A stretch of 56,488 bases of DNA from Nanobdellota archaeon (GCA_043825215.1 JBDRSD010000065.1:1-56488); one strand, 5' to 3'; positions 6,457 through 31,636 are shown, counted from the stretch's first letter. Numbers and translations are program-made. Notes: generated from the sequence alone by a model not told the origin.

Positions 6457-6461
6457 ATATA

Positions 6462-6749: not shown

Positions 6750-6759
6750 GTGGAATGAA

Positions 6760-7520: not shown

Positions 7521-7582
7521 ACAACAAACACTATAAACGATTAACGACAAACACGATTAACGAATAACTACCAGGTGATATT

Positions 7583-9857: not shown

Positions 9858-10036
9858 GTGGTTCGTCGGACATATCTCCCGCATCTGATCCCAGCGCTCA
9901 CGCGCTGGATTAACCCTACTGCAATCGCGCAGGAACTAAACGCCAACGTCGTTGGCGGCCAGTCCCTTGCCTTTGGCAAGGGTTATTCGCGTGCATTGCA
10001 CGAGAAGTGGGGCGGGAGTAAGTCCTCCCTGTCCGT
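9858..10036 (-). ncRNA. Copy C (full-length) of the family-1 structured RNA-like element
   Basis: Read on the minus strand, a long-range helix CTCCCGC (10012-10018) / GCGGGAG (9876-9882) encloses a chain of hairpins: CGTGCA-AUG.., CCCTTGCC-AAA-GGCAAGGG, GCCAACG-AC-GTTGGC and CCAGCGC-GTGA-GCGCTGG (9891-9908). GNRA loops appear only in this orientation. Confidence 0.6.
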
Positions 10037-10078
10037 CTACGATTTTAACTCGAGTTATGGTTCTTACCGAGAAAATGA

Positions 10079-11710: not shown

Positions 11711-11715
11711 TGGTC

Positions 11716-13029
11716 TTACTTTCTTTTTCTTCGGGTCAGCGTCGCCTCACAGCCGCGTACCTGGTAGTTTTCCCAGCCACGCTTTGCCATTGCTGCATAG
11801 AATGCATCTCTTGATTCTGCATCTTTTTTCACTGCACTAGGTATCACGCCAAGCTCGCGGAGGACTTCTCTCTTCTCGACGAGGTACTTGTCTGTTGCCG
11901 ACATTCCTGAATCTGCAGTTTCGCGAGGGGACTTATGTGCTTTTTTCTCGTATGCGAGATGCCAGCAATGGATTGCCCTGCCATCAATACCTTTTGCATG
12001 GAGATTTTTATATGCTTCTTCATGGGTTTTTCCTGATTCACGAAGAGTTGCATAAGTGCTAGAACCGATCGATTTTTCTCGGGTTCTTTTTCCTGATGTT
12101 GTTTTCCGAAGAACCTTTTCAAATCCCTGCCTGTATCCGTGGACTACTCTGCCGTTGATGCCTGCCGCCTTGAATTGTTCCATGATGGTCGCATGGTCGA
12201 CGCCCTGTTCTCTCAGTCCTTTGTATCCATCATATCTGGTATCGAGTTCTGATTGTTCAGGCGCATCTTGGACAGTGTCGTCGATTGTTGATTCTTGCGT
12301 CAGTTTTTCATGGGTAAAGTAAAGAGCCATATGAAGGCCTATCTTTGCTTGGGCAAATGTCTTGGGATGCGATGATCTCAGGTCGTCAACTATTGCAATG
12401 CCCAGCTCGCGTGCAATCTTCCTGTTCTCGACGGGGATACTGACTGCGACAAGATCCTCTCCATACACTGTCTCTTGTGCCCTGGTTTTGATCTCCATAA
12501 CCTTGAGGCTTTTGGCAACAGCCTTGACTGTGTAGTTGAAGAGGTCTGCTTCAGAGCGTCCTTCTTTGGTATGGCTTCCCTTGTAGACGGGAAGAAGCAC
12601 AGCAACCTGGCTGTCGCTTACCACAGTCACCAGATCAAGGTCCAAGGGCTGGACTGTCTCGATATCCTGTTTTGCAGAAAAGTATTTCTTTCCGATCCGC
12701 CTCACAAGTTCTTGCATATGCGCTGCCGCGGCTTCTTTGACTTTATCTGGCGCGTGTTGCAGGGTTTGCACGTATTCTTCTGAGGTGTAGTAGTGGTATG
12801 CCTCGATATCCTGTTGATGCCCTGTTTCCACCCTCTCGATTATTGCGAGCTTTTCAAGCGTGCGCGTGGATGCGATCCCTCGTTCCTTGAGCGCTTCTGC
12901 CTGCTTCTTGAGTTCTTTCATCATTGCGCGTTCAGTCTTTTGGTCGATTTTCTTGTTGATCGCATCGTATGCGTCTTGTCGTTCTGTTTCAAGCTTTGTT
13001 ATGATGTCATTGACGGACATGTGTTTCAC
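11716..13029 (-). CDS. Hypothetical 437-aa protein with three C-terminal tandem ~40-aa repeats
   Basis: The repeats are 'YKGLREQGVDHATIMEQFKAAGINGRVVHGYRQGFEKV', 'YATLRESGKTHEEAYKNLHAKGIDGRAIHCWHLAYEKK' and a degenerate third. There is a coiled-coil-like N-terminus. Gaps to the neighbouring genes are 26 nt (upstream) and 5 nt (downstream). Confidence 0.6.
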   Translation of the reverse strand: MKHMSVNDIITKLETERQDAYDAINKKIDQKTERAMMKELKKQAEALKERGIASTRTLEKLAIIERVETGHQQDIEAYHYYTSEEYVQTLQHAPDKVKEAAAAHMQELVRRIGKKYFSAKQDIETVQPLDLDLVTVVSDSQVAVLLPVYKGSHTKEGRSEADLFNYTVKAVAKSLKVMEIKTRAQETVYGEDLVAVSIPVENRKIARELGIAIVDDLRSSHPKTFAQAKIGLHMALYFTHEKLTQESTIDDTVQDAPEQSELDTRYDGYKGLREQGVDHATIMEQFKAAGINGRVVHGYRQGFEKVLRKTTSGKRTREKSIGSSTYATLRESGKTHEEAYKNLHAKGIDGRAIHCWHLAYEKKAHKSPRETADSGMSATDKYLVEKREVLRELGVIPSAVKKDAESRDAFYAAMAKRGWENYQVRGCEATLTRRKRK

Positions 13030-13055
13030 CCTTATTTGTTTTCTTCATCTCTTTT

Positions 13056-14672
13056 TTATCGGACTATGCCTAATGCTTTGAGCGTGCTATTATAGATTGT
13101 CAGGAAGACCTCTTGCTGGCGTTGGAGCAGTGTCTGGACAGGAAATTCAGGATTCTTGTCTGTCATGAGCTTTCCTTCGAGCCCTGATATCTCTTTTGCG
13201 AGGATTTCTGCATTGTAGCGCTCGCGTTCCTGGTCAGTGCCATTGGTATGCCTCCTTTCGTAGTCTGGATGCGCTGTGTTGACGCGCAAAAGCCCGTATC
13301 CGGTGTCAAGGATGCTGTGGAGCCCTCGTTCAGGTCCATGGAATTCCTCGTGGAGTGGCTTGAAAGGGAGCCTGCCCTTGGGAGGTTCTCTTGGCGAGTC
13401 AGTGCGTGGATTGGGGGTCCTGTTGATGTCTCGGATGAGCTTCTTTCCTATTTTTTTCTTTTCTGTGATACCTTGTTCTGTCCGTACAAGATCCCAATCG
13501 ATAAGTTCTAACAGGTGTTTCAGGTCGTATGCCTTGAGGAGAGCATTCATGACCTTGTAGGTGATCTCATTGTCTCTATTTCTTGATGTGAATCTCGCAT
13601 TTTCTCTGATGGCTTCGCACATGTCTGGCACAATGTCTGCTTTGACATGGTTTGCAAAGTCCCTGAAGCGGTCATTGTCGCTGATTGCCATGCGCTGGGG
13701 GTCAAGTATGGTCAGGTATCCTTTGGTGTTTGTCGGGTGGGGCCAGACGTTGATGAATCCGTAGAACTTGCCGACTTTTGGCGAGAAGGGGTTCTGGAAT
13801 TTTGTATCCACTCCTTTGAGTTCGTTGATGACTTCCATGAGCTCTTCGTTTTGGTTGAGGTTTCCGATGACCCGGACATCCTGGATGTGGAGTGCGATCT
13901 TTTCGTTGGTGCCGTTCGGGTTCATCCAGAGATGTGCATGGATGGTTCCATAGCTTGTCTCGATTGTCTTGTCAATGACTAGATAGCATTGCACGCCGTG
14001 TATTGCAGGGTCATCATAGTATGGTGCCATGACTTCTGTCTCTTTTGCAGTCTTTCCTCTCTTTCCCCTGTATTTGATGGTGATTTCCGGAGAACGTATT
14101 CCTTCTCGCACGAAAAGCGGTGCATAAGTCTCGCTGAGGAATTCTGCGATCTTTTTTGGTATGAATTTCTGCTCGAAAGTCTTGGCATCGATGCCGTCAA
14201 TCATCACTTCCACGCCGTGGCGGAATCGCCGGTCAGGATCGAAATCGTCAAGCGCGATGTCATCAAGTGATTCCCAGCCTTTTTCAAAGAGCTTTATCCG
14301 AGAATACTGGCTTTCTGACCCGTCCAGTGGTCTTGTTGTTATCATGCAGCTTTCTGCAAAGGTCTGGTAGGCATGCAGTCCGAATTGCTGAAATCCTATC
14401 TTTGTCGGGTCGTGCCTTTTTTTGGAGAGGCCGAATTCTTCAGGTATTGCATACAGTTCCCTATGATGCATTCCAGGACCGTTATCTGTGAGGATGATTC
14501 TCCCGCTCTCCTTGTCTAGGAGGATGTGTATTCTCATGCGTTCATCAGTATGAGTTCTCTCGTCGAGTGAGTTGGATACGTATTCCTTGAGTGCGAGGTA
14601 GGGGTTCTGGAACCGTGCAGTCCTGCTGATCGTGAATGCTTCGTCTCCTATCTTGTATGGTCTCATGGTCAT
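13056..14672 (-). CDS. GHKL-superfamily (Hsp90/MORC-like) ATPase, island-1 paralog
   Basis: N-box 'EYVSNSLDE', G1 'LTDNGPGM', G2 'DPTKIGFQQFGLHAY', and C-terminal 'RVNTAHP', which is shared with the 576-aa GHKL at 25198-26928. Its start overlaps the upstream stop (TAATG). Confidence 0.75.
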   Translation of the reverse strand: MTMRPYKIGDEAFTISRTARFQNPYLALKEYVSNSLDERTHTDERMRIHILLDKESGRIILTDNGPGMHHRELYAIPEEFGLSKKRHDPTKIGFQQFGLHAYQTFAESCMITTRPLDGSESQYSRIKLFEKGWESLDDIALDDFDPDRRFRHGVEVMIDGIDAKTFEQKFIPKKIAEFLSETYAPLFVREGIRSPEITIKYRGKRGKTAKETEVMAPYYDDPAIHGVQCYLVIDKTIETSYGTIHAHLWMNPNGTNEKIALHIQDVRVIGNLNQNEELMEVINELKGVDTKFQNPFSPKVGKFYGFINVWPHPTNTKGYLTILDPQRMAISDNDRFRDFANHVKADIVPDMCEAIRENARFTSRNRDNEITYKVMNALLKAYDLKHLLELIDWDLVRTEQGITEKKKIGKKLIRDINRTPNPRTDSPREPPKGRLPFKPLHEEFHGPERGLHSILDTGYGLLRVNTAHPDYERRHTNGTDQERERYNAEILAKEISGLEGKLMTDKNPEFPVQTLLQRQQEVFLTIYNSTLKALGIVR

Positions 14673-15433
14673 TATTTCACCTTGTGTGGTCCGTTTTCAA
14701 GCTTGACTCGCGTGTCATAGATATGGAATTCTCTTTGCAGTTCTTCTGATGTCTTATGGATGGTCTGGAGGAGGTAGATGAGGTCTCCAAGATCTTTTTT
14801 TGGAAGTGCTTCTTGCAGTTTTTTCCGTCTCGCTTCTGATAAGGCAGGGAGGGAGAGGAGACTATAGGCAAGGTTGTACACGTTATGTACCATCATGCGC
14901 ACATATTCTTCTGGATTATGTGAGGTCATCTTATTGAATTCTTCTGGAGTCTTCACTTGCGGGCCTTTAAGGTATGCGTCAATGCCTTGCAGGAGCGCGC
15001 CGAGTATTTCTCTTGTCTGTTGCAGTGCTTCGGTTCTTGGTGCTTGATAGGTATCGCTTTGTACAGTTGCTTCCAGCGGGGATTCAGGTTCATTTCCTAG
15101 AAGCGGATGTTTTGAGAGTGGAAATTGTTTCACTAATTTTTGGGCTTCTGGCGAATCATAGGGCAGGTTTGCTCGCTCACTCCACGTACTTGGGTGAAGC
15201 AGGGGATCCCTTGTTAATGAATAAATTTTGTCTCGGGTTTTGCAGGGGACATATATCGGATGACTTCCTTCGCGATACAGTTTAGATATTGTAAAATGTG
15301 AAAGGCCTGAAACTCTTGCTGCTTCTGCATAGGTGAATTTAGGATCACCTTTTTGCATGGTATCAAACCATTCTTGAAAGCGTACTGAGAGGATATTCTT
15401 TCTGGCTTTTTGTGATTTTGGCTTTCGTTTCAT
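14672..15433 (-). CDS. HTH-domain protein (first gene of island 1)
   Basis: N-terminal 'KFTYAEAARVSGLSHFTISKLYREG' fits a helix-turn-helix. The rest of the protein is unknown. Confidence 0.6.
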   Translation of the reverse strand: MKRKPKSQKARKNILSVRFQEWFDTMQKGDPKFTYAEAARVSGLSHFTISKLYREGSHPIYVPCKTRDKIYSLTRDPLLHPSTWSERANLPYDSPEAQKLVKQFPLSKHPLLGNEPESPLEATVQSDTYQAPRTEALQQTREILGALLQGIDAYLKGPQVKTPEEFNKMTSHNPEEYVRMMVHNVYNLAYSLLSLPALSEARRKKLQEALPKKDLGDLIYLLQTIHKTSEELQREFHIYDTRVKLENGPHKVK

Positions 15434-20431: not shown

Positions 20432-20505
20432 CCGAAGCGTAAGCTTCGGTATAACATAAAGAATAACGCCGCTTGCGCGGCAAAGTATTTCCGTGCCTTG
20501 CACGG
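20432..20505. repeat. Cluster of three short GC-stem hairpins, including a two-hairpin module repeated at 34452-34494
   Basis: CCGAAGC-GTAA-GCTTCGG (20432-20449), GCCGC-TTGC-GCGGC (20468-20481) and CCGTGC-CTT-GCACGG (20491-20505). The last two plus their spacer match the reverse complement of 34452-34494 at about 33/39 positions by eye, and the differences lie in the loops. Confidence 0.4.
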
Positions 20506-20571: not shown

Positions 20572-20865
20572 TTACTCGATCTTCACGACAATTCCGCCGA
20601 CCCAGCTTGCTAAGAGGTTGTAGACTGCTGCCGTGCATACTCCCATCAGGAATCCGATGATGCCGTAGAGGATGGGAAAGACTATGATGAGCCCCCAGCT
20701 CAAGCTTGCAAGGGGTTCGAATCCCGTGACCTCCGTTCCCGTACCACCCCCGAAGTTGACAACTATGGCCATGATGAGCCCATAGATGAGCCCAAAGAGG
20801 GCCATGCCAGGCATCATGATTTTTCCATAGGACACAGGTCCGATTCTTGTTAGTTTTCCTTCCAT
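20572..20865 (-). CDS. Small membrane protein (terminal gene of the GHKL/MoxR operon)
   Basis: 2-3 hydrophobic helices and a Gly-rich loop 'NFGGGTGTEVTG'. ATG 20865 is preceded by GGAGGAAT; an alternative ATG at 20880 abuts the nuclease gene's stop. Confidence 0.55.
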   Translation of the reverse strand: MEGKLTRIGPVSYGKIMMPGMALFGLIYGLIMAIVVNFGGGTGTEVTGFEPLASLSWGLIIVFPILYGIIGFLMGVCTAAVYNLLASWVGGIVVKIE

Positions 20866-20880
20866 TTTATTCCTCCGCAT

Positions 20881-21174
20881 CTAAGTGATGCATTCAATTG
20901 TCTTTGAAGTTCCACAGTAAAAGTAATATCCTGCGTTTTTTCCGATGTATTTTCTGATCTTTTGTAGTTGACGCCTGGCTTTGATGATGCGAAATGAGCA
21001 TTTGACTTCGAAGATGTCGACGCGCTCGCCCCAGACTCCGACAAGGTCGATCTCGCCGACGAGCCTGCCGCGGGAGGAGATGAGAGGGATATGCCTCAGG
21101 AAATAGTCGTATTCTCCCTGTATCCTCGCGTACAGGTCTTCCACGAAAGTGTCATGCTTGCTTGTCTTCTGCAA
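20881..21174 (-). CDS. Small PD-(D/E)xK nuclease-fold protein (YraN/Hjc-like)
   Basis: 'GRLVGEIDLVGVWGERVDIFEVKCS' gives the D...(D/E)xK signature spacing. 97 aa. Confidence 0.6.
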   Translation of the reverse strand: MQKTSKHDTFVEDLYARIQGEYDYFLRHIPLISSRGRLVGEIDLVGVWGERVDIFEVKCSFRIIKARRQLQKIRKYIGKNAGYYFYCGTSKTIECIT

Positions 21175-21232
21175 GGCTAATCCCTATCTTTTTTTGGGAA
21201 AGGAGGTATTTATAGTTTGCTATCCTGAAGTG

Positions 21233-24200
21233 TTATGCATTCCAGGCGACAGGATTTTGGGTTTGCTGCGGAGGTGGAGGGGCAGGTTTTGGCTTGATGA
21301 TAGGGTAGTGTTCCTCGTAACGCTTATTAGCGACACACACTCCTGGAACATTGTTTTCCTTTGGACGTGCATCGAATGCTATGTCCTGTTTTTTAAGTTC
21401 CCGCACTCGCTGTTCTTCTTCGTATAGACGGCGGAGTGTCATGTGGGCAAGCTGGTTGAGATAGCGAAGATCGAAGTAATCATAGGGTTCTCTCTTGTGA
21501 AGGGAGAGGCCGATGCGTTCCTGGAGATTGAGTCCTTGCTGTTCCATGTAGTCCATAATTTTCCATCGGAGTTCTTGTTTCTTCCTGTATAATCCTTCGA
21601 TTTTTTCAGCGTCGCAGAAGGTATCCCCAAGTCTGAAGCTTTCATCTGTTCCGATGGCCTCGTGCGCATAGATGTGCAGCATCCTGTCGAGCAGGGTGAG
21701 TGCAACGGCATCTATTCTATTCTTGCTGCCAGTCGCGTATGCTTTATCAAGCTGTTTTAAAGGAGTATGAAGATTGTTGAGGTGGATTGTCCAGACTCCT
21801 TTCTTCTTTGAGGTGATGCCGATATGGCTTGGCTGGCTGACGAGAGTGACGTCGTTATAGGCGAGCTGAATTCTGTGGGGTTCTGTCCTGATCGCTTCGG
21901 AAAGGAGGGAGTCTAGGCTTTCTATCGCGTGGACATAGTCGCGAAGTGTTCTTCCGCAGTCGACGGTCGAGAGCATCTTGTCCAACCTGTCCAGAGGCAT
22001 GTCGTCGAATGAGTCTCCTGAACGGATGCCATCACCGAGGAAGTTGTAGACGACGCTGTTATAATACCAGTCCTTGATATTAGCAAGGAAGTTGTTCCAT
22101 TTATTCTTTCGGTTCTTATGCTGTTCTGCGCGAAGCAGGGCTTTGACTTCAGCCTTTCTTGCCCGCTCCAGTTCTTGTGCTTCCCTTTGTCGTCGATTTT
22201 CGAGCTCTTTGGCTATCCTGTCTTGTTCGTCTCGTTCTTTCTTGTATTTCTTCCGATTTGCTCTCTTTTCCTTCTTCTTTGTTGCTTGTTCTTGGTGGCG
22301 GTGATACCACGCATTGATTTTTTCTATCGTCTGCGGAATGTCACGAGGATCAAGAACTTGAACCAATGGCAAAAGGCCGTTCGTATACGTCCACTTCCCT
22401 GCAAGTCCTGCTCCCTTCCCTCCATAATAGAGAGCAATTGCAGGTGATATGAGCGCGATTCCTGAATATTTCGCAATCTTTCGCCCTTTCGTCTTCGCCC
22501 AATGATGTACTCGCTCAGGGGTATTTTGGAGGTATTGCACGAACCTGTATGCATAGTACTTTCCTGGAGAATAGGATCGACGAAGCTCGTCGATTTGAGT
22601 AGGTGCGCCATCTCTGAATCCTTCTCGGGTTTCTTTGATTAAGTAGATGCCTATGTGAGCCATGCCTATGGGTGAAAGATAATAAAGGACAGAGGCAAGT
22701 CCCTTTGCTTTCTTTTTCAGGTTATCGAGGTGGTCTTCAAGTATCTTGACGTCGTAGGTGCTGCCGACTTTGTATTTGATCTCTTCGAGCCTGGACATGA
22801 CTGCCTCGACGATTGGGTTGGTCTTGTCAACGACGTATTCGTCATGGCTTGGACAGCCGCCAGTGATGAGTTTTCTCCTGAGGTAAAGGTCGACAAGGTC
22901 GTCGATGGAGAGCTTGACTGTCTGTTTCTTGAGGGAAGCATCTTTATCTCTGCTTCCCTGGCTGCGGTCATAGTCAAATCGCTGTGACCATTGTTCTCCC
23001 CATAATGCCTCTTCGAAGCGTTCGAGTATTGACTTTTTCTCTGCTTCTTCTCCGATTGTCCCCGTAACAGGTTTCTCTTTTTGTTCCCTATAGAAATAGG
23101 TGGCGTTGATGATTTTCTTTTCCATGATCTTTTGGAAGAAGGCGTCCTTGCGCATGTTGGAGAGGTATTTCTTGGTGATCTTCTCCCGTTGCTTGTTCAT
23201 CTTCCGTGTTCTTTTTTCTTCGACATTGACATAGAGGCCAAGGCCGTGGAGTGCTCGTTGTCCAAGGTAGTGCAGTCCGTCATAGATGTTGACAGGGATG
23301 TGGACAAGAGCGCTTCCTATCGCTGGCAGCGCGTGATAGATGGTGGTGACAAGGTCGGAGAGAGAATGATGTTCAGTGTCATTGCGTCTGTTTGATTTTT
23401 GCCTTTTGGACTTCATCTGTTCCCGGTTCTCCCTGGCGAGCTTTATTCTTGAGAAATAGTCGACAAGATCGTCGATACAGCCAGGGATTGCCTTTGCGAG
23501 ACGATAGATGCCATATCCTGCAAGTCCGGTGGCTGCTGCCAGAACAAGACCCTTTCCCACGTATTCTAATGGCTTCCAGCCCCAATGCTTGACTGTTTCG
23601 TAGAGGCCAAATCCGAGAGCTCCTGCACCGATGACGTATGGCGCTGCTTGCTTTGCTCTGTGGGAGATCCTGTGGCCGAGGTATGCAAGGTCTGCCAGAT
23701 TTTTTTCTCTTGCCAGTCTTCGTCTCTCTTTCCTGTTTGGAGCATCTGCCTTCCATTTGGCTATTGCTTCTGAGATGTCATTAGGAAGGTCGGTGAAGGG
23801 ATACGTGACAGTCTTGTATATGGAATAACCGCCCAGATAGAGGATGCGAAAAGGCAGCTTTGCAGCAACGGTTGCTCCGTCGAGGGTTGCAGAGATGCCT
23901 TTGGCGAGGTATGTTCCCATGCGTCGCTTGAACGTGTATTCTTTCTGTCTTGCTGCGTAGACCTGGTTGTTATACCGTTTGGTAAAGATGTCGCTTAAGG
24001 TCTGCATGAGGCTTCCTGAAGAGTGGTAGACGATCTCTTCATCAGCGAGGATGACGTCGAGGAAGAGCTCTTCAAATCCTGCGTAGATGCCATCCAGGAC
24101 TGCTGGGGAGTGGTCTGCTATGATATTGTTCCTCCCTTTGGTGAGGGTGACATGGTCCGGCACGTCGACCCAGAAGTCGAGGCCTATATCTGTAAGGGAA

Positions 24201-25201
24201 TTCAGAAGGGTTCTATGGATGGACTGGTCGCTGAAATCCGCATTGTCATACTTGATGAAGAGGCCTCGTTGGGTGAATAGGATTTTGTTGAGGTTCTGGT
24301 TTCGGTATTTGAACCGTGGGTCGGTGAACCTGCCTGCGAGCTCTCGTTTTGACACTCCAAGAGTCATTAGTTTTGTGACATCATCAAGCGTGATAAGGAC
24401 AGGTGATGATTTCGAATAGGTACTCCTGAGCGTGTTTATCTGGTCATCGTCAAATGTTATATCTGCGGCGGCCTCGTCGACCATGCCCAGGTGTTGGTAG
24501 AGTGCATCCTTGATCTGTTGTCTGGATGTCTTATGCGTCGGTATGAATGCAGTCACTTCTGTCCCTTGTTCTCTGGTGTTCAAGGGAGGGTGGAAGCCGT
24601 TCATGGATTGTGGTATGAATCTTGCCATCCACGTGCCGTCCTCTGAGTAGACGTATGCCTGTGCCACGTTTTCCCTACCAGGTGTCCTCGTAACGACCTT
24701 GACGAGATCCGCAAAGTCAACGATGGAATACCAGCCAATGCCGTGTTCTCCGATCTTGGTGGGGTCGAACTCTTTTCCTGAATTGTAGGGGATGATGAGA
24801 TCGCGGACCAATGTCTTGAGATCCATGCCGCAACCATAGTCACGGACGTGGAGGACGAGGTGTTCTGGTTGTTCTTCCAATGAGAAGATGACCCTTCTGT
24901 CGGTTGATCTTGCGTCGTAGGAATCGATGGCATTCTGGCCGAGCTCGCGCAGTGTGGTATGCTGTTCTCCGAACTGCGATTCGATCGTGCGTTCGACGAT
25001 CTTCGGATAGAGTTTATGGGCTGTTGTGGATTCCCTTGTTTCTTCGATGAGTTGGTCAAGTTCCTCTTCTTCGACATCCGGTTTTGCTACCTCTGCTAAG
25101 AAATGGTCGAAGTCCCCTGCCATCTGCATCATGACAAGATCTGCTATGGGGATGTCGATCGATTTCTCTTCTTTGGTGATCTCTTCGAGGAGTTGTTTCA
25201 T
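21233..25201 (-). CDS. 1322-aa protein with an N-terminal Hsp90-like GHKL ATPase, membrane segments and a Lys/Arg/Glu coiled coil
   Basis: N-box 'RELGQNAIDSYDA', G1 'VRDYGCGM', G2 'DPTKIGEHGIGWYS'. Several hydrophobic helices (e.g. 'AAPYVIGAGALGFGLY', 'GLVLAAATGLAGYGIY', 'IALISPAIALYYGG'). A charged coiled coil 'KKKEKRANRKKYKKERDEQDRIAKELENRRQREAQELERARKAE'. ATGA overlap with the upstream gene. Confidence 0.8.
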   Translation of the reverse strand: MKQLLEEITKEEKSIDIPIADLVMMQMAGDFDHFLAEVAKPDVEEEELDQLIEETRESTTAHKLYPKIVERTIESQFGEQHTTLRELGQNAIDSYDARSTDRRVIFSLEEQPEHLVLHVRDYGCGMDLKTLVRDLIIPYNSGKEFDPTKIGEHGIGWYSIVDFADLVKVVTRTPGRENVAQAYVYSEDGTWMARFIPQSMNGFHPPLNTREQGTEVTAFIPTHKTSRQQIKDALYQHLGMVDEAAADITFDDDQINTLRSTYSKSSPVLITLDDVTKLMTLGVSKRELAGRFTDPRFKYRNQNLNKILFTQRGLFIKYDNADFSDQSIHRTLLNSLTDIGLDFWVDVPDHVTLTKGRNNIIADHSPAVLDGIYAGFEELFLDVILADEEIVYHSSGSLMQTLSDIFTKRYNNQVYAARQKEYTFKRRMGTYLAKGISATLDGATVAAKLPFRILYLGGYSIYKTVTYPFTDLPNDISEAIAKWKADAPNRKERRRLAREKNLADLAYLGHRISHRAKQAAPYVIGAGALGFGLYETVKHWGWKPLEYVGKGLVLAAATGLAGYGIYRLAKAIPGCIDDLVDYFSRIKLARENREQMKSKRQKSNRRNDTEHHSLSDLVTTIYHALPAIGSALVHIPVNIYDGLHYLGQRALHGLGLYVNVEEKRTRKMNKQREKITKKYLSNMRKDAFFQKIMEKKIINATYFYREQKEKPVTGTIGEEAEKKSILERFEEALWGEQWSQRFDYDRSQGSRDKDASLKKQTVKLSIDDLVDLYLRRKLITGGCPSHDEYVVDKTNPIVEAVMSRLEEIKYKVGSTYDVKILEDHLDNLKKKAKGLASVLYYLSPIGMAHIGIYLIKETREGFRDGAPTQIDELRRSYSPGKYYAYRFVQYLQNTPERVHHWAKTKGRKIAKYSGIALISPAIALYYGGKGAGLAGKWTYTNGLLPLVQVLDPRDIPQTIEKINAWYHRHQEQATKKKEKRANRKKYKKERDEQDRIAKELENRRQREAQELERARKAEVKALLRAEQHKNRKNKWNNFLANIKDWYYNSVVYNFLGDGIRSGDSFDDMPLDRLDKMLSTVDCGRTLRDYVHAIESLDSLLSEAIRTEPHRIQLAYNDVTLVSQPSHIGITSKKKGVWTIHLNNLHTPLKQLDKAYATGSKNRIDAVALTLLDRMLHIYAHEAIGTDESFRLGDTFCDAEKIEGLYRKKQELRWKIMDYMEQQGLNLQERIGLSLHKREPYDYFDLRYLNQLAHMTLRRLYEEEQRVRELKKQDIAFDARPKENNVPGVCVANKRYEEHYPIIKPKPAPPPPQQTQNPVAWNA

Positions 25202-26928
25202 GTGGGATGGCTCCGTTTTTTGTATGGTGTGCCGATGTAGCGGAGGGCTTCTTGGAGGTCTCTTTCCCTGATATTATCAGGTACTGGTTCGTTTCTCAAA
25301 TCGTTGATGGAACTTCCTTGTTGCGAATAGTATTCTGCAAGGACGCAATATGAGATGAGAGGATCATATGGTCTTGTCATGCAGGGATGTGCAGTATTGA
25401 TGTGGAGTATTCTTTCTACCCCGGTGAACCTGTTGTCTTCGAGCAAGACCGGGGAATGCCCGTAGGCAGGGATGTTGACGAGATGGATATTGGTTGTAGG
25501 AATGAACCTGTTCTTGACGGCGTTCTGGTTGTCGAATTCCCGTCCGAGGAGGTGGAGGTTAGGATATTCTCCGGAGTCGAGTCTTCTATAGAGTTCGCTC
25601 CTGTCGAATGTCTCGACCGGGACGAGCATCTTGAAGGTGAGATTGTGTGCTTGTTCATAGAGTTCGCTCCAGTACTGTACGGATTCTGGCAACACGATGA
25701 ATGTCTGTTGCATGATGTCCTCTCCGAAGAAGAGAGAATATCGTTCATGTTGCTGTCTTGTCAACACATATGATTTTCCAGGAATGAATGAGTCGCAGAT
25801 GTCACGGACGTGGGGGATATCTGTCAATGTCGTCATCCCAAATGCAGAGGCAAGAGCAGGTAGGAAGTCTCCCATGGCGCGGATGAATGGTTCTGTATGT
25901 TCCTGTCCTTTGAGGAAGTCCTGCAATGCGACGAAGACACCTGCGACTGAGATGTGATAGTTCTGGTCGATCTTGAACTCGTCGCGGCCTTCCACTACGC
26001 GTACTCCTGAAGGAAAGCTTACCCGTACGCTTCCTCTGCGAAGGCCGTGTTTGACAACGAAGATGCCTTGGTTTGTCAGGGTGAGATAGCTATTTTCTCT
26101 GCGTTCGTATTCGAAATTCTCGATCTTGAGGCCCACTGTCTGGCTGACTTTTTTTCCTCGTATTTCAAGCATGACAGGGGCCGTGTGCCAGGGATGTTTC
26201 TCATCTTCATTGAGGGTGTGCCGTCCTGCAGTGATCCTTGCCCTGTAGAGGGGAATATCCTGGACGTATCGTTTGATATATTCGTATGGGTCCACTTCTA
26301 TTGAATACTCGCTTGGTCGTCTTCCGAATTGGCTTCGCGTGATCGACACTTTTGTGCAAGCATATTTACGTGGTTTTTTTTTCTCGACAGTCATGTGCAT
26401 GTCGGTGACGTTATTGCTTGTGGAATAGAAGGTGAGCTTGTAGCGTTCGTTGCCAGCTTGCGTGTCGACATTGACTTTTGCTTTGCCTGGATTCTTGACG
26501 CAGTAATTGAAGGTGGAGAGGAATCCGACGCCGAACCAGCCGATCTGGTCGATTCCATTCTTGTCTGAGTTGAAAGGAATGATAAGCACGCGAAGGATGT
26601 CTGCAAGGTTCATGCCGTCTCCGTTGTCTTCGCAGGAGAATTTCGAGTATCCTATCTTGAGCTTGATATGGTATTCTCCTTCGAATCCTGTCGGTCGTGC
26701 ATCGATCGCATTCGTGATGACTTGGAACATGGGCTGGAGATGATCACTGAACTGCTTGACTAACTCTTCGCGGAGGATCTTCTCGAGATATTTCTGGTTT
26801 TTCGGGTGGGTGGTCCCTGAAGGGAGTTCTTGGTCGTGTTGCACGGCAGTGACAGTTGCCTCCAAGGAGTGTCTGTTGAGACCGTTGCTGATCCAAGTGA
26901 CGAGAGGAAGGTCGTATTGTCGGCTCAT
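25198..26928 (-). CDS. 576-aa Hsp90-like GHKL ATPase
   Basis: N-box 'QVITNAIDA', G1 'CEDNGDGM', and G2 'IGWFGVGFLSTF' (compare the Hsp90 'IGQFGVGFYS'). C-terminal 'HINTAHP'. ATGA overlaps on both sides. Confidence 0.8.
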   Translation of the reverse strand: MSRQYDLPLVTWISNGLNRHSLEATVTAVQHDQELPSGTTHPKNQKYLEKILREELVKQFSDHLQPMFQVITNAIDARPTGFEGEYHIKLKIGYSKFSCEDNGDGMNLADILRVLIIPFNSDKNGIDQIGWFGVGFLSTFNYCVKNPGKAKVNVDTQAGNERYKLTFYSTSNNVTDMHMTVEKKKPRKYACTKVSITRSQFGRRPSEYSIEVDPYEYIKRYVQDIPLYRARITAGRHTLNEDEKHPWHTAPVMLEIRGKKVSQTVGLKIENFEYERRENSYLTLTNQGIFVVKHGLRRGSVRVSFPSGVRVVEGRDEFKIDQNYHISVAGVFVALQDFLKGQEHTEPFIRAMGDFLPALASAFGMTTLTDIPHVRDICDSFIPGKSYVLTRQQHERYSLFFGEDIMQQTFIVLPESVQYWSELYEQAHNLTFKMLVPVETFDRSELYRRLDSGEYPNLHLLGREFDNQNAVKNRFIPTTNIHLVNIPAYGHSPVLLEDNRFTGVERILHINTAHPCMTRPYDPLISYCVLAEYYSQQGSSINDLRNEPVPDNIRERDLQEALRYIGTPYKKRSHPT

Positions 26929-29102
26929 GCTGTCGCCTCCGCATACAGGTCTTTGGTTATTTTGATTGAGCCTGTGAGAAAGTCTTCCACTTTGCTGATG
27001 AGGGGGACTTGGATTCCTCTATCCTGCATGGCAAGGGAGAAGGTGGTGTGGAATGTGCCGATCTGGAAGGGGAAGATACCAATCCCTCGTGTCTGGAGCA
27101 TCTGGTCGATTTCGTAAAGGACTTCTTGTTGGTTGGTCTCGAAGTTGAAGGCAAAGTCAGAGAGCATGAAGAGGATGAAGTTGTCATGCCTTTCTCGTCG
27201 GAGGCGTGAGAATTCGTATGGGTCTAGGACTGTTGCAGAGCCTGTCTTATTGAAGAGGGTCCTCTTGAATTGCATCTGCTCGCTATACGTGCACCAGCCG
27301 CTTGAGCGTGTCTTGTTGGAGAAGGTCATCATATTATAGTTGAGGAGCGGGGCGATGCCTTCCTGTTCGAGATAGTTGAGCATGGAGTAGATGGTGAGCG
27401 CTGCGATATGATATTCTCCTTCTCCCTTTTCTGGATCAAAGTACATGCTGGGGCTGCAGTCGACGACCCACGCGATGTCAGGAAGCCCTCCTTTGATGCC
27501 GCCTCCTTCGATGGGGAGAGTGAGGGGGTTGGTCTTCCTGTAGAGCTTGACTTCTTTTTTTCCGGAATCTTTTGTAAAGACGCGTGTCTGTGACCAGTCG
27601 ATGTGTTCAGATGAGAATTCATCAAAGGGCATCTCTTCTGTGCTGAGCATATGCTCTTCGAGGTCTCCTTGGTCTTTTTCTTCTTCGCCGATGATCTTGA
27701 TCCTGCCTGCTCGTCTGCGGTAGAGCATGTCCATCCGCGGCAAGACAAGGACGTGTGGTGAGTCTTCATCTTTCTCGTCCTTGAGCATCTCTTTGATGAT
27801 GGGGTAGAACCTGTCGTTTTCTTGTCGTTGCAGGTCTTGGTACCATTTTGGTACTTCGAAGTGTTTCTTGTCAGGCTGGCCGCTGCTTGGGATGAGGACA
27901 TACATTTCCTCATCACCTGATCGCTCATCATTTTCTGATGGATGGGACTGTTCTTTCTTGCCTTTTCCTTTCTTTTCCTTGTTTTTCTTCCCTTTTCCAA
28001 TCTGAGGTTGTGCCTCCTTTTCGTCGTGCTTTCCTCCCCCATTGTCCTTATCGCCTTGGGTTCCGCTGCCGTTGTCCTTTCCTTGTTGGTTGCTGTCATC
28101 TCTCTGTTGAGGCGAATTCTTGCCGTCGGAGGATTGCTTTTGTTGTCCGCTGTTTCCTTTCTGCGGTCTCTGGTTCTGTCGTGATGACGGGCTTCTGGTA
28201 AACGAGTTCTGGTAGGCTTCGTCCGGTTCTTTGATGAATGGATAGATTGCGCTTGTGTAGTCGTAGGACATCTGTTTCCAAAGCGACGTATCCCGCAGCC
28301 TGTTGACAAGTCGTTGTTGGTCCCCTGGAGGGAGGGTTCCGTCGAGCACTTGCTGTGTGTAGAGGTCGTTTCCGGTAAAGACAGTGATGAGCTTTTGCCT
28401 GTAGCGTTCGAACTCGAAGAAGGTGCCGACAGGAAGGAACTTGAGCCGGTTGTGGGTGATGATGCGCGGGGTGAAGTAGTTCTCGACCTTTTTGCGAAGC
28501 GTCGGTTCAATCTGGCAGAGGGCAAGTTCTGTGCCGACCATGATGGATGATCCTTTGTCGATGTATCTCGTTCCCATCCCTCGCATGAAGTAGTAGTTCA
28601 TGAGGAATATATGGGCGAGCCCTTCCTTGTAGCGGTTCTTGTCCCTGTCTGTCAAAGCATTGATTGTATTGAGGATGGTATCTTCGAAGAAGTTTGCGAC
28701 GGTTAAGCATTTGTCGATGGTGTCGCGTTCGCTTCTTTCGCGTCCATGGAGGAAATCATATGCACCTTGTATGATGAGCTGGAAGAGTTCCTGGTTCCTC
28801 GGGCACTCCCAGTGGTGGTCGAATTCGTGCCCGATGACTGCATACATGAGGGAATCGAAGAATTCCCCGGCATTGATGCGACGGTCTCCTCGTCTGAGCT
28901 GTTCGTCATGGGTGATATCCGCAACAAGGTAATCGAAGAGTTCTGTTGTCGCGATGTAGATCTTGCGGTCGTTTAGCGTGATGAGTGCACTGATCGGAGC
29001 TCCAAATGACATGACGGAGACGATCGGGTCGTGGTATTGGGTCTGTCCCATCTCATCAAGCAATTGTCTTCCTTTCTTCCTGATGCGCGCCTCAAGGGTC
29101 AT
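26925..29102 (-). CDS. Fusion of an HExxH metallopeptidase-like domain, a low-complexity linker and a C-terminal vWA domain (COG3864/DUF2201-like partner of MoxR ATPases)
   Basis: 'VIGHEFDHHWE' (HExxH, nt ~28815-28829). Q/G/K/D-rich linker (nt ~27909-28196). vWA MIDAS 'VVDCSPS' = DxSxS (nt 27447-27461). The start is taken at ATG 29102 (MTLEARIRKK), because the longer ORF overlaps the upstream gene by 188 nt. Confidence 0.8.
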   Translation of the reverse strand: MTLEARIRKKGRQLLDEMGQTQYHDPIVSVMSFGAPISALITLNDRKIYIATTELFDYLVADITHDEQLRRGDRRINAGEFFDSLMYAVIGHEFDHHWECPRNQELFQLIIQGAYDFLHGRERSERDTIDKCLTVANFFEDTILNTINALTDRDKNRYKEGLAHIFLMNYYFMRGMGTRYIDKGSSIMVGTELALCQIEPTLRKKVENYFTPRIITHNRLKFLPVGTFFEFERYRQKLITVFTGNDLYTQQVLDGTLPPGDQQRLVNRLRDTSLWKQMSYDYTSAIYPFIKEPDEAYQNSFTRSPSSRQNQRPQKGNSGQQKQSSDGKNSPQQRDDSNQQGKDNGSGTQGDKDNGGGKHDEKEAQPQIGKGKKNKEKKGKGKKEQSHPSENDERSGDEEMYVLIPSSGQPDKKHFEVPKWYQDLQRQENDRFYPIIKEMLKDEKDEDSPHVLVLPRMDMLYRRRAGRIKIIGEEEKDQGDLEEHMLSTEEMPFDEFSSEHIDWSQTRVFTKDSGKKEVKLYRKTNPLTLPIEGGGIKGGLPDIAWVVDCSPSMYFDPEKGEGEYHIAALTIYSMLNYLEQEGIAPLLNYNMMTFSNKTRSSGWCTYSEQMQFKRTLFNKTGSATVLDPYEFSRLRRERHDNFILFMLSDFAFNFETNQQEVLYEIDQMLQTRGIGIFPFQIGTFHTTFSLAMQDRGIQVPLISKVEDFLTGSIKITKDLYAEATA

Positions 29103-29877
29103 GGTAAAAGGCCTCCTGGGGAAGGGTGAATGTGAGGTGGTGATGGGCGGCGAGGGTGAACTGGTGTCGTACGCTGTCAAAGAAGGATCCGGCTCTTGTG
29201 AGTTGGTTTGCAGGGAGCCCTGAATGGTGGGGGCTTTCGAGTGTGTAGTCAAGATGGGTACCGTCGTCGGATCTGACAAGTGTTACGCGCTCTTTGAGGA
29301 ATTCGTGGCGAATGTCAGTTCCATTGTAGAATCCGTGGTCTGAACTGATCTGGTCGGCTATGCTGAGCAGGGCGAGGAGGAGGGCTTCTGTCTGCGATTG
29401 GTGCTCTTGACGGAATGATCTTGTCAGGTCTCCTTTGCTTGTGCCATATATGATGAGCTGCTTGACAAGGTCTGGGGTGTCTGGGTGTTCTGAGAAGACA
29501 AGTGTCATGCCTGGGAGATGGACAAAATTGTTGCGTCGCCTTTCTGTAATGAGTGATTGGAGGTCGGGAGGCAGAGAATAACTGGAAAGAGTGTCGTAAT
29601 ATGCTTCGATCTCTCCTCTGAGCAGGGAGATAATGTCTGTTTGGGCGATTCCTTTCAGGCGGATGCTTGTGACGTCTGGCCTGTTGTATGCCATCTCTAT
29701 CATGAAAGATAGTGTCCCTCCTTTTTCAGCGATTGTCGCTTGCCTTGTTTGCAGGTCATCTGCGTACCTGCGAGCATATTCTACAAGTCCATAGTGTAGG
29801 AATGCGTCGAGGGAAACACGTTTGTTGCCTCCTTTCTCTTCATAGAAGAGCTCTCCGATTCTGGAATAGTCTTTCAT
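29092..29877 (-). CDS. Hypothetical 261-aa protein (second gene of the operon)
   Basis: Clean ORF with an ATGA overlap to the MoxR gene's stop. No recognisable motif. Confidence 0.6.
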   Translation of the reverse strand: MKDYSRIGELFYEEKGGNKRVSLDAFLHYGLVEYARRYADDLQTRQATIAEKGGTLSFMIEMAYNRPDVTSIRLKGIAQTDIISLLRGEIEAYYDTLSSYSLPPDLQSLITERRRNNFVHLPGMTLVFSEHPDTPDLVKQLIIYGTSKGDLTRSFRQEHQSQTEALLLALLSIADQISSDHGFYNGTDIRHEFLKERVTLVRSDDGTHLDYTLESPHHSGLPANQLTRAGSFFDSVRHQFTLAAHHHLTFTLPQEAFYHDP

Positions 29878-31487
29878 GTGTATAGGTCATCCTTGATATC
29901 TTGTGTTGATTTTTCTTCTCGGTGGTCCATGTAAGGTGCTACAGCCCTAAGAAGCCATGGGTTCTCTTTTTCGCAATATGCCGCAAATTCAGCAGCGTCT
30001 TCTCGTCCTTTTGTACCATTGAGGAGGTCTACGAGGATTTCTTGTGAGGCAGGGGCTGCAAGCCCGTCCTTGAATTTCCCAGACACTTCATTGGAAAATG
30101 CCTGGACAGCACCGTAGATGCTTCCTTGGTAGTGTTTTTCGATCCAGAGGGGGGAGATGCCGATCTTGGAATATGCCACGAAGACGAAAGCCGATTCAAA
30201 GTCCTCTTGCAGCACTTCGAGGTTGTCGACGTATTTTGCAAGGGCTTTTTTTGCTAAGGGTCTTCCGGTGAGGGGCGTTTCTGTATAGTCTTGGAGGGCT
30301 GTCTCGACGAGTCCTGGTTCTGGTGTGAATCGTCCGGCGTCTCCAGTAACATATGCTGAGAGGAATTCTACGAATTTCGTCGCCCGAAGGAGGGTAAATC
30401 CTTTTGCGACCTTGCGTAGGTTCCCTGAGATGCCAGGAGTTAGTCCGCTGACATAGGGGCACATCTCGTGCTTGAATGCGACGAGGTATTCGCAGCCTAT
30501 GCCTTCTTGGATCTCGGTGTTCCCTATCTGCATGGGTTTTGCGCAGACATGCCTGATGCTTCCTTGTTTCTTTGCGACGGCGTCCTTGTCGCCTGTAAAC
30601 GAGTGTTTGCAGTAGTCGAATGATTCTATGTAGGCATTGTAGAGGTCGGCAAGGGGATGGAGGTTTATGTCCTGGAGGACTTTCCTATAAGAAAGGATGG
30701 TCTCCAGCTGCGATACTGTCTCTGGTAGTAGTATGGGCTTTCCGTCGCGTTCGCGGAGGATCTTTTCGTCCCGTGCAGTAAGAGAGAAGACGTCCATGGG
30801 AATTTCAATGGTCGTCCTTCGGCGAAGCGCCTTATCGATGTCAAATGTGCCTGAGTAGTCTTTTCCTTCGTTGATGGTTGCAATCTGGAATTGGTAGGTC
30901 GTGCCGTCAGGAAGTTGCATTCCTATCTTGACGCGTTGTCCGTTCGGAAGTGTGATCTCTTTTTCTTCGCCGATGATGTGGAGTGCCTTTGCGCTCTGTT
31001 TGGCATGTGTCCGATTCAATTCGTCGGCAATGAATCCTGGAAGCGAGAGCCAGGGTTGTGCGCGGTAGAAATCAGAGAGTGTCATCCCTTCTTTCTGGAA
31101 GAAGTCTGAGGAGACGTCTGAGACGCTGTCCCTACCAAAGTCTGTGTCAAAGTCTAGTTTGTGCCATCCTTGTTCTTCTGAGCCAAGGAGGGAGTTCATG
31201 ACAAGTTTTGCAAGTGTCGTCTTTCCTGTGTCTGTTCCTCCTGTCATGAGGATGGGGCTTTCGGTGATTGCTCCGATCAGAAGGAGGTCTTTGAGGTCAT
31301 AGGTGACAGAGAATGGGAATTTGATGCCGTGGGGGAGGATGAGGTGGGAACTTGTGACGGCAAGTGTCCTTGAATGCACGTATGCTTCGGTGTCATTGTG
31401 CATCTTGGTGTTGAGCTCGTCTAGTGTGCGGATGGATTCTTTTTCAATTGCCATAGGTATCGCCCTCGCCTCTTTTTTTTGAGTCAT
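29874..31487 (-). CDS. MoxR-like AAA+ ATPase (long form)
   Basis: Walker A 'GGTDTGKT', MoxR-type Walker B 'FIADELNR', sensor-1 'ATINEG', 'ALRRR'. The start is probably ATG 31487 (MTQKKE) or 31454; the ORF-track GTG at 31556 lies upstream of a TATA-like box. Confidence 0.8.
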   Translation of the reverse strand: MTQKKEARAIPMAIEKESIRTLDELNTKMHNDTEAYVHSRTLAVTSSHLILPHGIKFPFSVTYDLKDLLLIGAITESPILMTGGTDTGKTTLAKLVMNSLLGSEEQGWHKLDFDTDFGRDSVSDVSSDFFQKEGMTLSDFYRAQPWLSLPGFIADELNRTHAKQSAKALHIIGEEKEITLPNGQRVKIGMQLPDGTTYQFQIATINEGKDYSGTFDIDKALRRRTTIEIPMDVFSLTARDEKILRERDGKPILLPETVSQLETILSYRKVLQDINLHPLADLYNAYIESFDYCKHSFTGDKDAVAKKQGSIRHVCAKPMQIGNTEIQEGIGCEYLVAFKHEMCPYVSGLTPGISGNLRKVAKGFTLLRATKFVEFLSAYVTGDAGRFTPEPGLVETALQDYTETPLTGRPLAKKALAKYVDNLEVLQEDFESAFVFVAYSKIGISPLWIEKHYQGSIYGAVQAFSNEVSGKFKDGLAAPASQEILVDLLNGTKGREDAAEFAAYCEKENPWLLRAVAPYMDHREEKSTQDIKDDLYT

Positions 31488-31532
31488 ACTGGAATGAACA
31501 ACACAATCACTCTTCAGTAGAAACAATATTGC

Positions 31533-31550
31533 CTTTTTAAAGGTTTTTAT
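31533..31550 (-). promoter_or_regulatory. TATA-like element upstream of the MoxR/vWA/GHKL operon
   Basis: The minus strand reads ATAAAAACCTTTAAAAAGG, about 45-60 nt upstream of ATG 31487. Confidence 0.35.
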
Positions 31551-31636
31551 CTTCACTGTCGTAAAGTGGTGAAAATAAGGCCTTTTTCTTCATAAAAACC
31601 TTAAGAATCATGTGGGAAGGTGAAGAATAGGAGATT

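Follow-up and report, generated by a model that had tools for sequence, protein, structure and literature searches.

A conserved five-gene archaeal operon linking a MoxR-type ATPase and an HExxH-vWA protein to a pair of divergent Hsp90-like GHKL ATPases

Organization of the locus

In the present study, we describe an operon found in a 56,488-nucleotide stretch of DNA from a Nanobdellota archaeon (GCA_043825215.1, JBDRSD010000065.1:1-56488), which is referred to, at its full length, as the window. Seven consecutive open reading frames (ORFs), numbered G1 to G7 in the direction of transcription, lie on the minus strand of the region, and the first five of these (21233-31454, or about 10 kb of coding sequence) form a conserved, translationally coupled archaeal operon that consists of two modules. 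Module A is a chaperone/co-chaperone couple in which a MoxR-type AAA+ ATPase (G1) is partnered by G3, a fusion of a zinc-peptidase-like HExxH domain with a vWA domain, and G2, a presumed adaptor, is encoded between them, while module B comprises two paralogous and very divergent Hsp90-like GHKL ATPases (G4 and G5). The five genes, in window coordinates, and the evidence on which each description is based are as follows:

29874..31454, minus strand: G1, divergent MoxR/AAA_5-type AAA+ ATPase (motifs, profile matches)
29092..29877, minus strand: G2, 261-aa protein of unknown fold (alignment, synteny)
26925..29102, minus strand: G3, 725-aa protein with a helical HExxH domain, a linker and a vWA domain (conserved residues, fold matches)
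25198..26928, minus strand: G4, 576-aa soluble Hsp90-like GHKL ATPase (Pfam, profile, AlphaFold2 model and Foldseek)
21233..25201, minus strand: G5, 1322-aa protein with Hsp90-like N and middle domains, hydrophobic hairpins and a C-terminal domain (profiles)

Three of the junctions are ATGA overlaps (G1/G2 at 29874-29877, G3/G4 at 26925-26928, and G4/G5 at 25198-25201), and G2 and G3 overlap by 11 nt (29092-29102, ATGACCCTTGA). These junctions and ORFs had been described in an earlier interpretation of the same DNA made from its sequence alone (the sequence-only reading), and re-reading of the window bore them out. The five-gene operon proposed there stands as well, except that G1 had been started at position 31556; the ORF does extend to a GTG codon at that position, but alignment with homologues favors the ATG at 31454, giving a protein of 526 aa. 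The ATG start of G3 at 29102 was confirmed by homologue alignment.

The window is part of a cellular archaeal chromosome, and it also encodes EF-2, EF-1alpha, a class II aminoacyl-tRNA synthetase (tRNA-synt_2 family), NDK, ELP3, TrmB, a P-type ATPase and CorC. The operon is flanked by the EF-1alpha region and the CorC transporter gene, viral genes are absent there, the reading frames are intact, and the active sites are conserved. Its G+C content and its G+C content at third codon positions are the same as those of the flanking genes, and recent horizontal acquisition of this copy is thus not indicated. Named homologues of the operon proteins are found in metagenome-assembled genomes of Woese-, Pace- and Nanoarchaeota. 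Direct scans with the window proteins against Pfam, NCBIfam, PHROGs and PADLOC yielded almost nothing above cut-off (in PHROGs, no match beyond one generic AAA+ family), and profiles and structure models were therefore needed for the assignments given below.

Conservation and modularity of the operon

A search anchored on G4 recovered 40 homologous proteins and 20 genome loci, and one anchored on G1 recovered 24 metagenome loci. When scored with family hidden Markov models (HMMs), 25 loci carry G1-G2-G3-G4-G5 in that order, representing about 19 lineages when a cut-off of 90% identity in G1 is applied (for G1, the median identity is 48%; protein identities span 36-55%). Every G1-anchored contig of sufficient length carries G2-G5, with the sole exception of locus L043, in which a truncated G1 (408 aa; 10001-11227) abuts SecD/F genes and G2-G5 are missing, apparently as the remnant of a deletion. 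This identical gene order across 25 loci establishes that the genes form a true conserved operon, as the sequence-only reading had supposed, and goes far beyond what chance would produce. One might still propose that two unrelated systems, a MoxR-vWA couple and a GHKL pair, merely lie side by side, given that each module exists somewhere without the other. However, the four-nucleotide start/stop overlaps at G3-G4 and G4-G5, the maintenance of one order in about 19 lineages at 36-55% protein identity, and the constant association of this G1 subfamily with G4/G5 wherever the contig allows (bar the one remnant) are difficult to reconcile with such a proposal, which the synteny effectively refutes.

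The modules can nevertheless be found separately. G4 and G5 occur without G1-G3 in five loci, and in four of these stand-alone pairs G5 is short (approximately 700-775 aa) and lacks hydrophobic segments. On contig CAYOKQ010000009.1 (loci L012 and L020), a full operon and a stand-alone pair of G4 and short G5 are located approximately 6 kb apart in convergent orientation. Couples of G1 and G3 without GHKL genes are present in several distant archaeal settings. For example, in a member of the Promethearchaeota (Asgard; L051, 1-5396) and one of the Bathyarchaeota (L055, 1165-7506), a gene for a BrxL-like (BREX Lon-like) ATPase is immediately followed by G1-like and G3-like genes, with GHKL genes absent; this set of BrxL-like, MoxR and HExxH-vWA genes is apparently a separate, undescribed three-gene arrangement. 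Another locus (L054, 7494-13807) has three paralogues in tandem (339, 350 and 304 aa; about 72% identical), without any family match, flanking its MoxR and G3-like genes, and an AbiEii gene lies nearby. A further G1/G3 pair (L052, 1-9000 and 14549-15418) is embedded in NAD-metabolism genes of the salvage type (QRPTase, NAD synthase, NUDIX, ADP-ribosyl glycohydrolase, and two isochorismatase-family genes) on a 478-kb contig whose genes lie almost entirely on one strand. Locus L017 seemed to contain a fusion of G3 and G4 (a 1275-aa ORF at 4948-8775), which would have served as Rosetta-stone evidence, but this ORF was dismissed as a scaffolding artefact, as a run of N (XX in the protein) occupies the junction at approximately 6960 (residue ~675).

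Overall, the system is rare and patchy, with 20 loci among 185,579 species genomes in a pattern search that was not exhaustive.

The Hsp90-like GHKL pair

G4 scores 25.7 bits on Pfam HATPase_c_3, and its profile retrieves HtpG first among PDB entries (E 4e-4). The AlphaFold2 (AF2) model is confident (predicted local distance difference test score, pLDDT, of 85.8; predicted template modeling score, pTM, of 0.82), and in a Foldseek search with this model the top 37 PDB matches all belong to the Hsp90 family (HtpG, TRAP1, GRP94 and Hsp90; E 1e-16 to 1e-10), most of them being full-length Hsp90 chains aligned over approximately 660-700 columns; SMCHD1, MutL, MORC3 and topoisomerase II rank below them. 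On the strength of the model, G4 is predicted to have the N-domain, middle domain and C-terminal dimerization domain layout of Hsp90. The profile of G5 matches the Hsp90 N-domain in the PDB (E 7.5e-11), and G5 is paralogous to the G4 family over 399 columns that span the N and middle domains (hhalign probability of 99%, E 2.4e-18). Thus, the assignment of two Hsp90-like GHKL ATPases made in the sequence-only reading is upheld by profiles for both proteins and by the confident G4 model.

The pair shares with Hsp90 the Bergerat motifs ExxxNxxDA, DxGxGM and IGxFGxGF (the N-box, G1 and G2 boxes), which are invariant across homologues, and the G4 model aligns along whole Hsp90 chains at a comparable size (576 aa versus 624 aa for HtpG). 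Both middle domains contain a conserved GR (EGRDEFK and TKGRNN), a candidate counterpart of the catalytic-loop Arg of Hsp90 (R380). Several features set the pair apart from Hsp90, however. Identity in the fold-search alignments is only 11-15%, and family-level profiles fail to match, with no hit to Pfam HSP90 (PF00183) and 12-19 bits on NCBIfam HSP90 (NF010683) against a cut-off of 455. G4 and G5 form a paralogous pair encoded together with MoxR-vWA genes, and instead of a C-domain, G5 has hydrophobic hairpins with an HxxxH domain. To our knowledge, most archaea lack Hsp90.

In addition, the G4 of the window lacks the catalytic Glu, which is present in 34 of 37 homologues and is replaced here by Gln (Q69). 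Within the corresponding stretch (window 26698-26736, G4 residues 65-77), Gln is found both at residue 69 and at the co-varying Arg position 65, and two other lineages of the 37 are alike in this respect. The catalytic Glu is kept in all G5 sequences, with E86, N90 and D93 invariant. Because of the Gln in the window G4, the sequence suggests that one ATP site of the presumed G4/G5 heterodimer may be hydrolysis-deficient in this archaeon.

The features of G5 are arranged as follows:

aa 1 to ~470: Hsp90-like N and middle domains
23282-23644 (aa ~520-640) and 22637-22693 (aa 837-855), minus strand: Gly/Ala-rich hydrophobic hairpin helices
22052-22249 (aa ~985-1050), minus strand: charged segment, lineage-specific
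21662-21676, minus strand: HxxxH (H1176/H1180) of the C-terminal domain

The hydrophobic segments are conserved in register. The several hydrophobic helices noted in G5 at the outset are strong in homologues, with Kyte-Doolittle (KD) values of up to 2.6, but are only moderately hydrophobic in the window (KD 1.2-1.4); the highly charged coiled coil noted alongside them corresponds mostly to gaps in homologues and is a lineage-specific feature rather than a general one. Conserved basic and acidic segments follow the hydrophobic helices, and the basic stretch, which comes directly after them, is amphipathic. In the C-terminal domain, HxxxH is near-invariant and takes the form HExxH in 3 of 24 sequences; a domain-only profile found no meaningful PDB match, and hhalign detected no relationship between this domain and the N-domain of G3. 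The C-terminal half of G5 evolves fast.

A dimerizing ATPase with paired Gly/Ala-rich hydrophobic helices in register and a basic amphipathic stretch brings to mind atlastin or mitofusin, and DPANN archaea depend on cell-cell contact. By analogy, the operon might encode a GHKL-driven machine for membrane remodeling or tethering, powered by ATP-dependent dimerization of the G5 N-domains, that helps symbionts to contact their hosts or viruses to enter or leave cells. We regard this as very unlikely, since the resemblance is purely architectural, the short G5 of the stand-alone pairs lacks hydrophobic segments, the hydrophobicity of the window G5 is marginal for transmembrane helices, and the peptidase and vWA domains would be left unexplained.

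The MoxR-vWA couple and the intervening protein

The AAA+ motifs of G1 (GGTDxGKT, LPGFIADE, INEG..GTF and ALRRR, corresponding to Walker A/B, sensor-1 and the arginine finger) are invariant in 11 homologues. Profile matches are weak when taken directly: the best PDB match of the G1 family is the MoxR-like structure 2r44 (E 0.014), matches to bpMoxR profiles are marginal, the window protein scores 14 bits on Pfam AAA_3 against a cut-off of 27, and among 11 members, sub-threshold matches were obtained to AAA_5 in 9 (best E 7e-4) and to AAA_3 in 7 (best E 1.7e-3). The G1 profile does, however, match four proteins from distant loci that have precomputed AAA_5 and/or AAA_3 hits (E 1e-39 to 1e-70). 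These transitive matches, together with the invariant motifs, substantiate the original MoxR-like assignment. Every full locus, as well as five distant ones from archaea, contains G1 together with its vWA partner G3. A C-terminal extension of approximately 250 aa contains four invariant Cys residues (C316, C338, C355 and C366 in ORF numbering) and conserved His residues (window 30456-30611, G1 residues 316-366), and this part of the extension may be a metal-binding module. We know of no such Cys/His module in typical MoxR ATPases.

G2, which sits between G1 and G3 in every full locus, is the fastest-evolving component of the operon, with 17-25% identity in the alignment. Profile scans with family members found no PDB match and no reproducible Pfam match; a DUF7825 match in one of nine members (E 3e-4 over 60 residues, below the cut-off) was dismissed as noise.

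Three elements can be located within G3:

28815-28829, minus strand: HEFDH codons of the N-terminal HExxH domain
~27692-28205, minus strand: Q/G/K-rich, disordered, low-complexity linker
27447-27461, minus strand: DxSxS of the metal ion-dependent adhesion site (MIDAS) in the C-terminal vWA domain

In the N-terminal domain, H92, E93 and H96, along with N137, D141 and N145, are invariant in 24 sequences that include the Asgard and Bathyarchaeota relatives, and the HExxH lies within a helix (residues 78-98) of the AF2 model. In the vWA domain, the MIDAS residues D548, S550, S552, T624 and D649 are invariant in 12 homologues. A word-indexed search for the family returned only four proteins, even with a 12-sequence profile, and the low-complexity linker is the suspected reason; without the index, 374 clusters were recovered from 1.84 billion representatives. 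Among 152 representatives of the family defined by these clusters, 112 of 116 retain HExxH, and the MIDAS is intact wherever the site is covered (142 of 142), with its residues retained in 139-146 of the 152.

Fold matches agree with the vWA assignment. The C-terminal region of the G3 model (pLDDT 30-70) retrieves only vWA domains from the PDB in Foldseek (TFIIH p44 at E 1e-4, NorD at 8.7e-4, Rpn10 and CMG2), the NorD match being a chain in complex with NorQ. Pfam VWA does not match the window G3 or 11 close homologues, but a distant member, P0148, exceeds the cut-off (24.9 bits versus 23.8), and another, P0145, is matched at E 0.007. The HExxH domain has no Pfam peptidase match and, with a domain-only profile, no meaningful PDB match. 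The invariant residues and vWA folds support both halves of the HExxH and vWA/MIDAS assignment. The kinship with COG3864/DUF2201 that had been entertained for G3 was not supported by profile scans: the order of HExxH and then vWA and the MoxR-like ATPase partner are shared, but G3 has a long low-complexity linker, and neither PF13203 (DUF2201_N) nor PF09967 (DUF2201) matches any of 12 members at E<=1 or any of 10 distant ones at E<=0.05.

Chromosomal and element-like contexts

The loci occur in two kinds of context, namely, ordinary chromosomal ones (the window, L003, L014, L058 and others) and tRNA-rich contigs on which nearly all genes lie on one strand. The element-like contigs also carry RNA ligase, PNKP and Tpt1 genes, or AcrVA2-like, SNase and HNH genes, and their organization suggests large viruses or mobile elements. 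The lineage of L001 and L002 appears in IMG/VR as a viral genome of 329.8 kb, the one match among the 2.9 million contigs of that database. Neither the 50,697 GenBank phage records nor the plasmid records yielded a homologue of G1 or of G3-family proteins, and within 10 kb of any annotated locus, no capsid, portal or terminase gene was seen. Likewise, no conserved client gene was seen in the neighborhood of the annotated loci.

Individual contigs of the element-like kind offer further detail. Arrays of tRNA genes flank the operon in L031 (3893-9157 and 20169-21511) and L057 (15651-21464), with 18 and 11 tRNAs, respectively, within 21 kb, and L056 encodes a suppressor tRNA with anticodon CTA (4929-5002); such traits, like the one-strand gene order, characterize huge viruses or large mobile elements. 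The tRNA-rich contigs include OFOV01000001.1, ERZ27256847:k141_644604, ERZ27249621:k141_1113306, IMGVR_UViG_3300028840_008160 and Ga0452209_000006. The flanks of L001 and L002 (e.g., L001 3589-4341 and 16430-18333) include genes of the RNA-repair type (Tpt1-like 2'-phosphotransferase, RNA ligase and PNKP), along with genes for WGR and HD proteins and a histidine phosphatase.

Comparison with known systems

A miss in defense-system databases had been expected for this locus, and PADLOC-DB v2 indeed contains no named system that corresponds to it: the GHKL cores score 10-16 bits against Tiamat TmtA, and the P-loop scores 13 bits against mad8. In the literature that was searched, no description of this gene combination was found. 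Thus, the view that the combination is new is supported by both sources, and the system is apparently undescribed, with components that belong to known superfamilies.

A close parallel is provided by the MoxR-vWA ternary conflict systems, in which the third component is VMAP, iSTAND, FtsH or a beta-propeller (Kaur, Burroughs, Iyer and Aravind, 2020, eLife; PMC7159879). MoxR-vWA couples fused to peptidases have been described as thresholding modules of conflict systems (PMC7159879; PMC12839542), and in such couples a MIDAS-bound peptide is remodeled by the AAA+ ring (PMC7159879). The present operon resembles these systems in combining a MoxR-clade AAA+ ATPase, a vWA (MIDAS) co-chaperone, a putative peptidase and a further large component, and in its patchy distribution and fast-evolving parts. 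In contrast, its third component is an Hsp90-like GHKL pair; scans of the window proteins with Pfam and NCBIfam revealed no VMAP, iSTAND, FtsH or beta-propeller, no EAD-type effector domain was detected, and Hsp90, GHKL and HATPase are unmentioned in the published account (PMC7159879). Moreover, the ternary systems are known from multicellular bacteria, whereas G1-G5 occurs in archaea with tiny genomes. The operon looks like a multi-component system of the MoxR-vWA-centered kind in which G4 and G5 appear to constitute a new Hsp90-like family, archaeal or viral.

rIIA and TmtA are related to G4 and G5 solely at the superfamily level. The rIIA-type GHKL proteins, which have variable tails, are discussed as a poorly understood phage counter-defense system (PMC7824862), and the T4 record annotates rIIA as a 'membrane integrity protector'. 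Like G5, rIIA and TmtA have an N-terminal GHKL ATPase followed by a long and highly variable C-terminal region. The similarity to G4/G5 is nevertheless weak and limited to the ATP-binding core (13-16 bits over about 90 residues for TmtA), and neither a paired paralogue nor a MoxR-vWA partner has been described for either protein. As a candidate for the closest relative of G4/G5, rIIA was rejected, as it scores 4-7 bits with the family HMMs compared to 22-44 bits for Hsp90.

A related two-gene logic is found in viruses. Jumbo phages of group 2.2 encode a MoxR ATPase together with a protein that has an N-terminal metallopeptidase and a vWA domain, a pair for which a role in virion assembly has been proposed, with ATV p618/p892, for which a morphogenetic role has been shown, cited as a comparable pair (Iyer et al., 2021, Viruses; PMC7824862). 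G3 shares this domain order, and when its model was compared with viral models, it matched, over both domains, 'VWFA domain' proteins of phages and haloarchaeal viruses that resemble it in length (E 1.6e-8 to 2e-5). On this basis, the operon could be a virus-derived morphogenesis module in which both pairs assemble virion or egress structures and process them by proteolysis and the chromosomal copies are proviral remnants. The tRNA arrays, suppressor tRNA, one-strand gene organization and IMG/VR listing of some contigs would fit such an origin, yet we consider it decidedly unlikely. The window copy has intact frames and conserved active sites with no viral genes nearby; the 2.9 million IMG/VR contigs yield one match and the 50,697 phage records none at the sequence level; PHROGs adds nothing beyond its generic AAA+ family; capsid, portal and terminase genes are missing within 10 kb of the annotated loci; and the jumbo-phage pairs have not been reported with a GHKL partner or a G2-like gene.

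Proposed mechanism and biological role

Hsp90 is a dimer that undergoes ATP-driven N-terminal dimerization. By extension, G4 and G5 may form an asymmetric, ATP-driven clamp of the Hsp90 type at the cytoplasmic face of the membrane, of which, in the window, only G5 retains the catalytic Glu. The MIDAS of G3 would capture a peptide, either from a client or from the clamp itself, the G1 hexamer would use ATP to remodel the captured complex, and the zincin domain of G3 could then process or cleave the target. Such a machine could act in defense when encoded by a chromosome and in counter-defense or exclusion when borne by an element.

We tentatively propose that G1-G5 is an accessory, horizontally mobile system of virus-host conflict, with a MoxR-vWA couple and an Hsp90-like clamp as its third component, and assign this interpretation a probability of roughly 40%. 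A conflict system fits better than a housekeeping chaperone because the operon is rare, is gained, lost and duplicated, and recombines its modules with other ATPases, and because G2 and the C-terminus of G5 evolve fast and both chromosomal and element-like copies exist. The sequence-only reading had left open whether the locus encodes a regulated sensor-effector machine of defense or conflict or one that acts on the envelope; its domains and operon structure have stood, its nuclease and membrane tail genes have not (see below), and distribution and modularity now lean toward conflict over an envelope or chaperone machine. Several points weigh against a role in conflict. No conserved toxic effector (nuclease, NADase or pore former) was recognized, the Hsp90 family is known for protein folding and not for immunity, several copies reside among housekeeping genes instead of defense islands, and the association with BrxL-like ATPases is restricted to two loci. 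Furthermore, the tRNA-rich contigs are no more than putatively viral; heterodimer formation, membrane insertion and peptidase activity are features that we infer; and confidence in the full G3 model, built from an alignment of five sequences, is low (pLDDT 51).

Since no toxic effector is conserved and Hsp90 proteins are chaperones, there is also a tentative alternative, which we rate as possible but somewhat improbable, namely, that the operon encodes a dedicated proteostasis or assembly machine. Here, a membrane-tethered Hsp90-like heterodimer would fold or hold a single membrane or surface client or a few of them; these would be loaded, released or metallated by the MoxR-vWA couple and trimmed by the zincin, similar to NorQ/NorD, CbbQ/CbbO and RavA/ViaA, in the service of cellular maintenance or host attachment and not of conflict. 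Maturation is the role of the known MoxR-vWA pairs (PMC7159879), the fold matches of G3 include the NorQ-NorD vWA complex, the best structural matches of G4 are Hsp90 chaperones, and chromosomal copies with host-like G+C lie amid housekeeping genes; chaperones are also known in huge phages (PMC7824862). A housekeeping function of this kind is harder to square with a rare and patchy system that is lost or duplicated in single lineages, that has no conserved client gene in its neighborhood, whose modules have joined unrelated partners, a BrxL-like ATPase among them, and whose G2 and C-terminal half of G5 are hypervariable.

A more specific form of the conflict interpretation is also conceivable, although we judge it unlikely: G4 and G5 may represent an unrecognized archaeal/viral branch of Hsp90 that serves as the membrane-anchored, asymmetric, ATP-driven clamp and sensor-effector of a new immune or exclusion system, is turned on by the MoxR-vWA-zincin proteins as a threshold module, and is exchanged between DPANN archaea and large viruses or mobile elements. 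This would be the first Hsp90-type machine implicated in virus-host conflict or membrane remodeling instead of general protein folding.

Whichever role applies, DPANN archaea with reduced genomes, for which about 10 kb of coding sequence represents a large investment, conserve this deeply divergent Hsp90-like pair, and it is hard-wired to a MoxR-vWA-peptidase couple of the sort that recurs in prokaryotic conflict systems and jumbo phages. As a conflict system, the operon would introduce NTPase machinery of a new class and show the Hsp90 fold in a new use; as a chaperone system, it would imply an unknown client of importance to the symbiont lifestyle. The MoxR and HExxH-vWA genes beside BrxL-like ATPases in Asgard archaea and Bathyarchaeota provide a second lead, and the presence of the operon on tRNA-rich, virus-like contigs opens a line of enquiry into archaeal virus-host interplay.

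Downstream genes and neighboring features

The remaining features of the region lie downstream of G5:

20881..21174, minus strand: G6, 97 aa, TTG start, GEIDLV-x11-DIFEVK motif
20572..20880, minus strand: G7, 102 aa, two strongly hydrophobic helices (KD 2.17 and 2.54), abutting G6
21207..21214, minus strand: TATAAATA, a putative archaeal TATA-like box approximately 36 nt upstream of the G6 start, in the G5-G6 gap (sequence reading)
20432..20482, minus strand: pair of G+C-rich hairpins, with T-rich tracts after them, just downstream of G7; the transcription unit may end here (consensus scan)

G5 and G6 are separated by 58 nt, while G6 and G7 abut (TAGATG). G6 had been described as a PD-(D/E)xK-type nuclease; the motif is present, but the match to NCBIfam PRK14676 (UPF0102) is sub-threshold (E 0.055; 13.6 bits versus a cut-off of 190) and no PDB match was found, so that G6 is possibly a YraN/UPF0102-like PD-(D/E)xK nuclease. 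In 23 other loci, the genes downstream of G5 include no counterpart of G6 or G7; L001, L002 and L030, which form one lineage, have two unrelated small genes at this position. Because of this absence and of the TATA-like box upstream of G6, the two genes are probably a separate, lineage-specific unit outside the five-gene system, contrary to their earlier inclusion as its nuclease and membrane tail, and they were rejected as effectors for lack of conservation. The number of hairpin/T-tract sites across the region does not exceed the shuffled expectation.

Elsewhere in the window, a second, unrelated cluster of four minus-strand genes (253, 538, 437 and 543 aa; 10079-15433) is located between the EF-2 and TrmB/EF-1alpha genes. 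Its 538-aa member is a HATPase_c_3 GHKL protein, and the other three have no Pfam or PADLOC match. This cluster may be an inserted island, as the region is usually a compact translation-factor operon.

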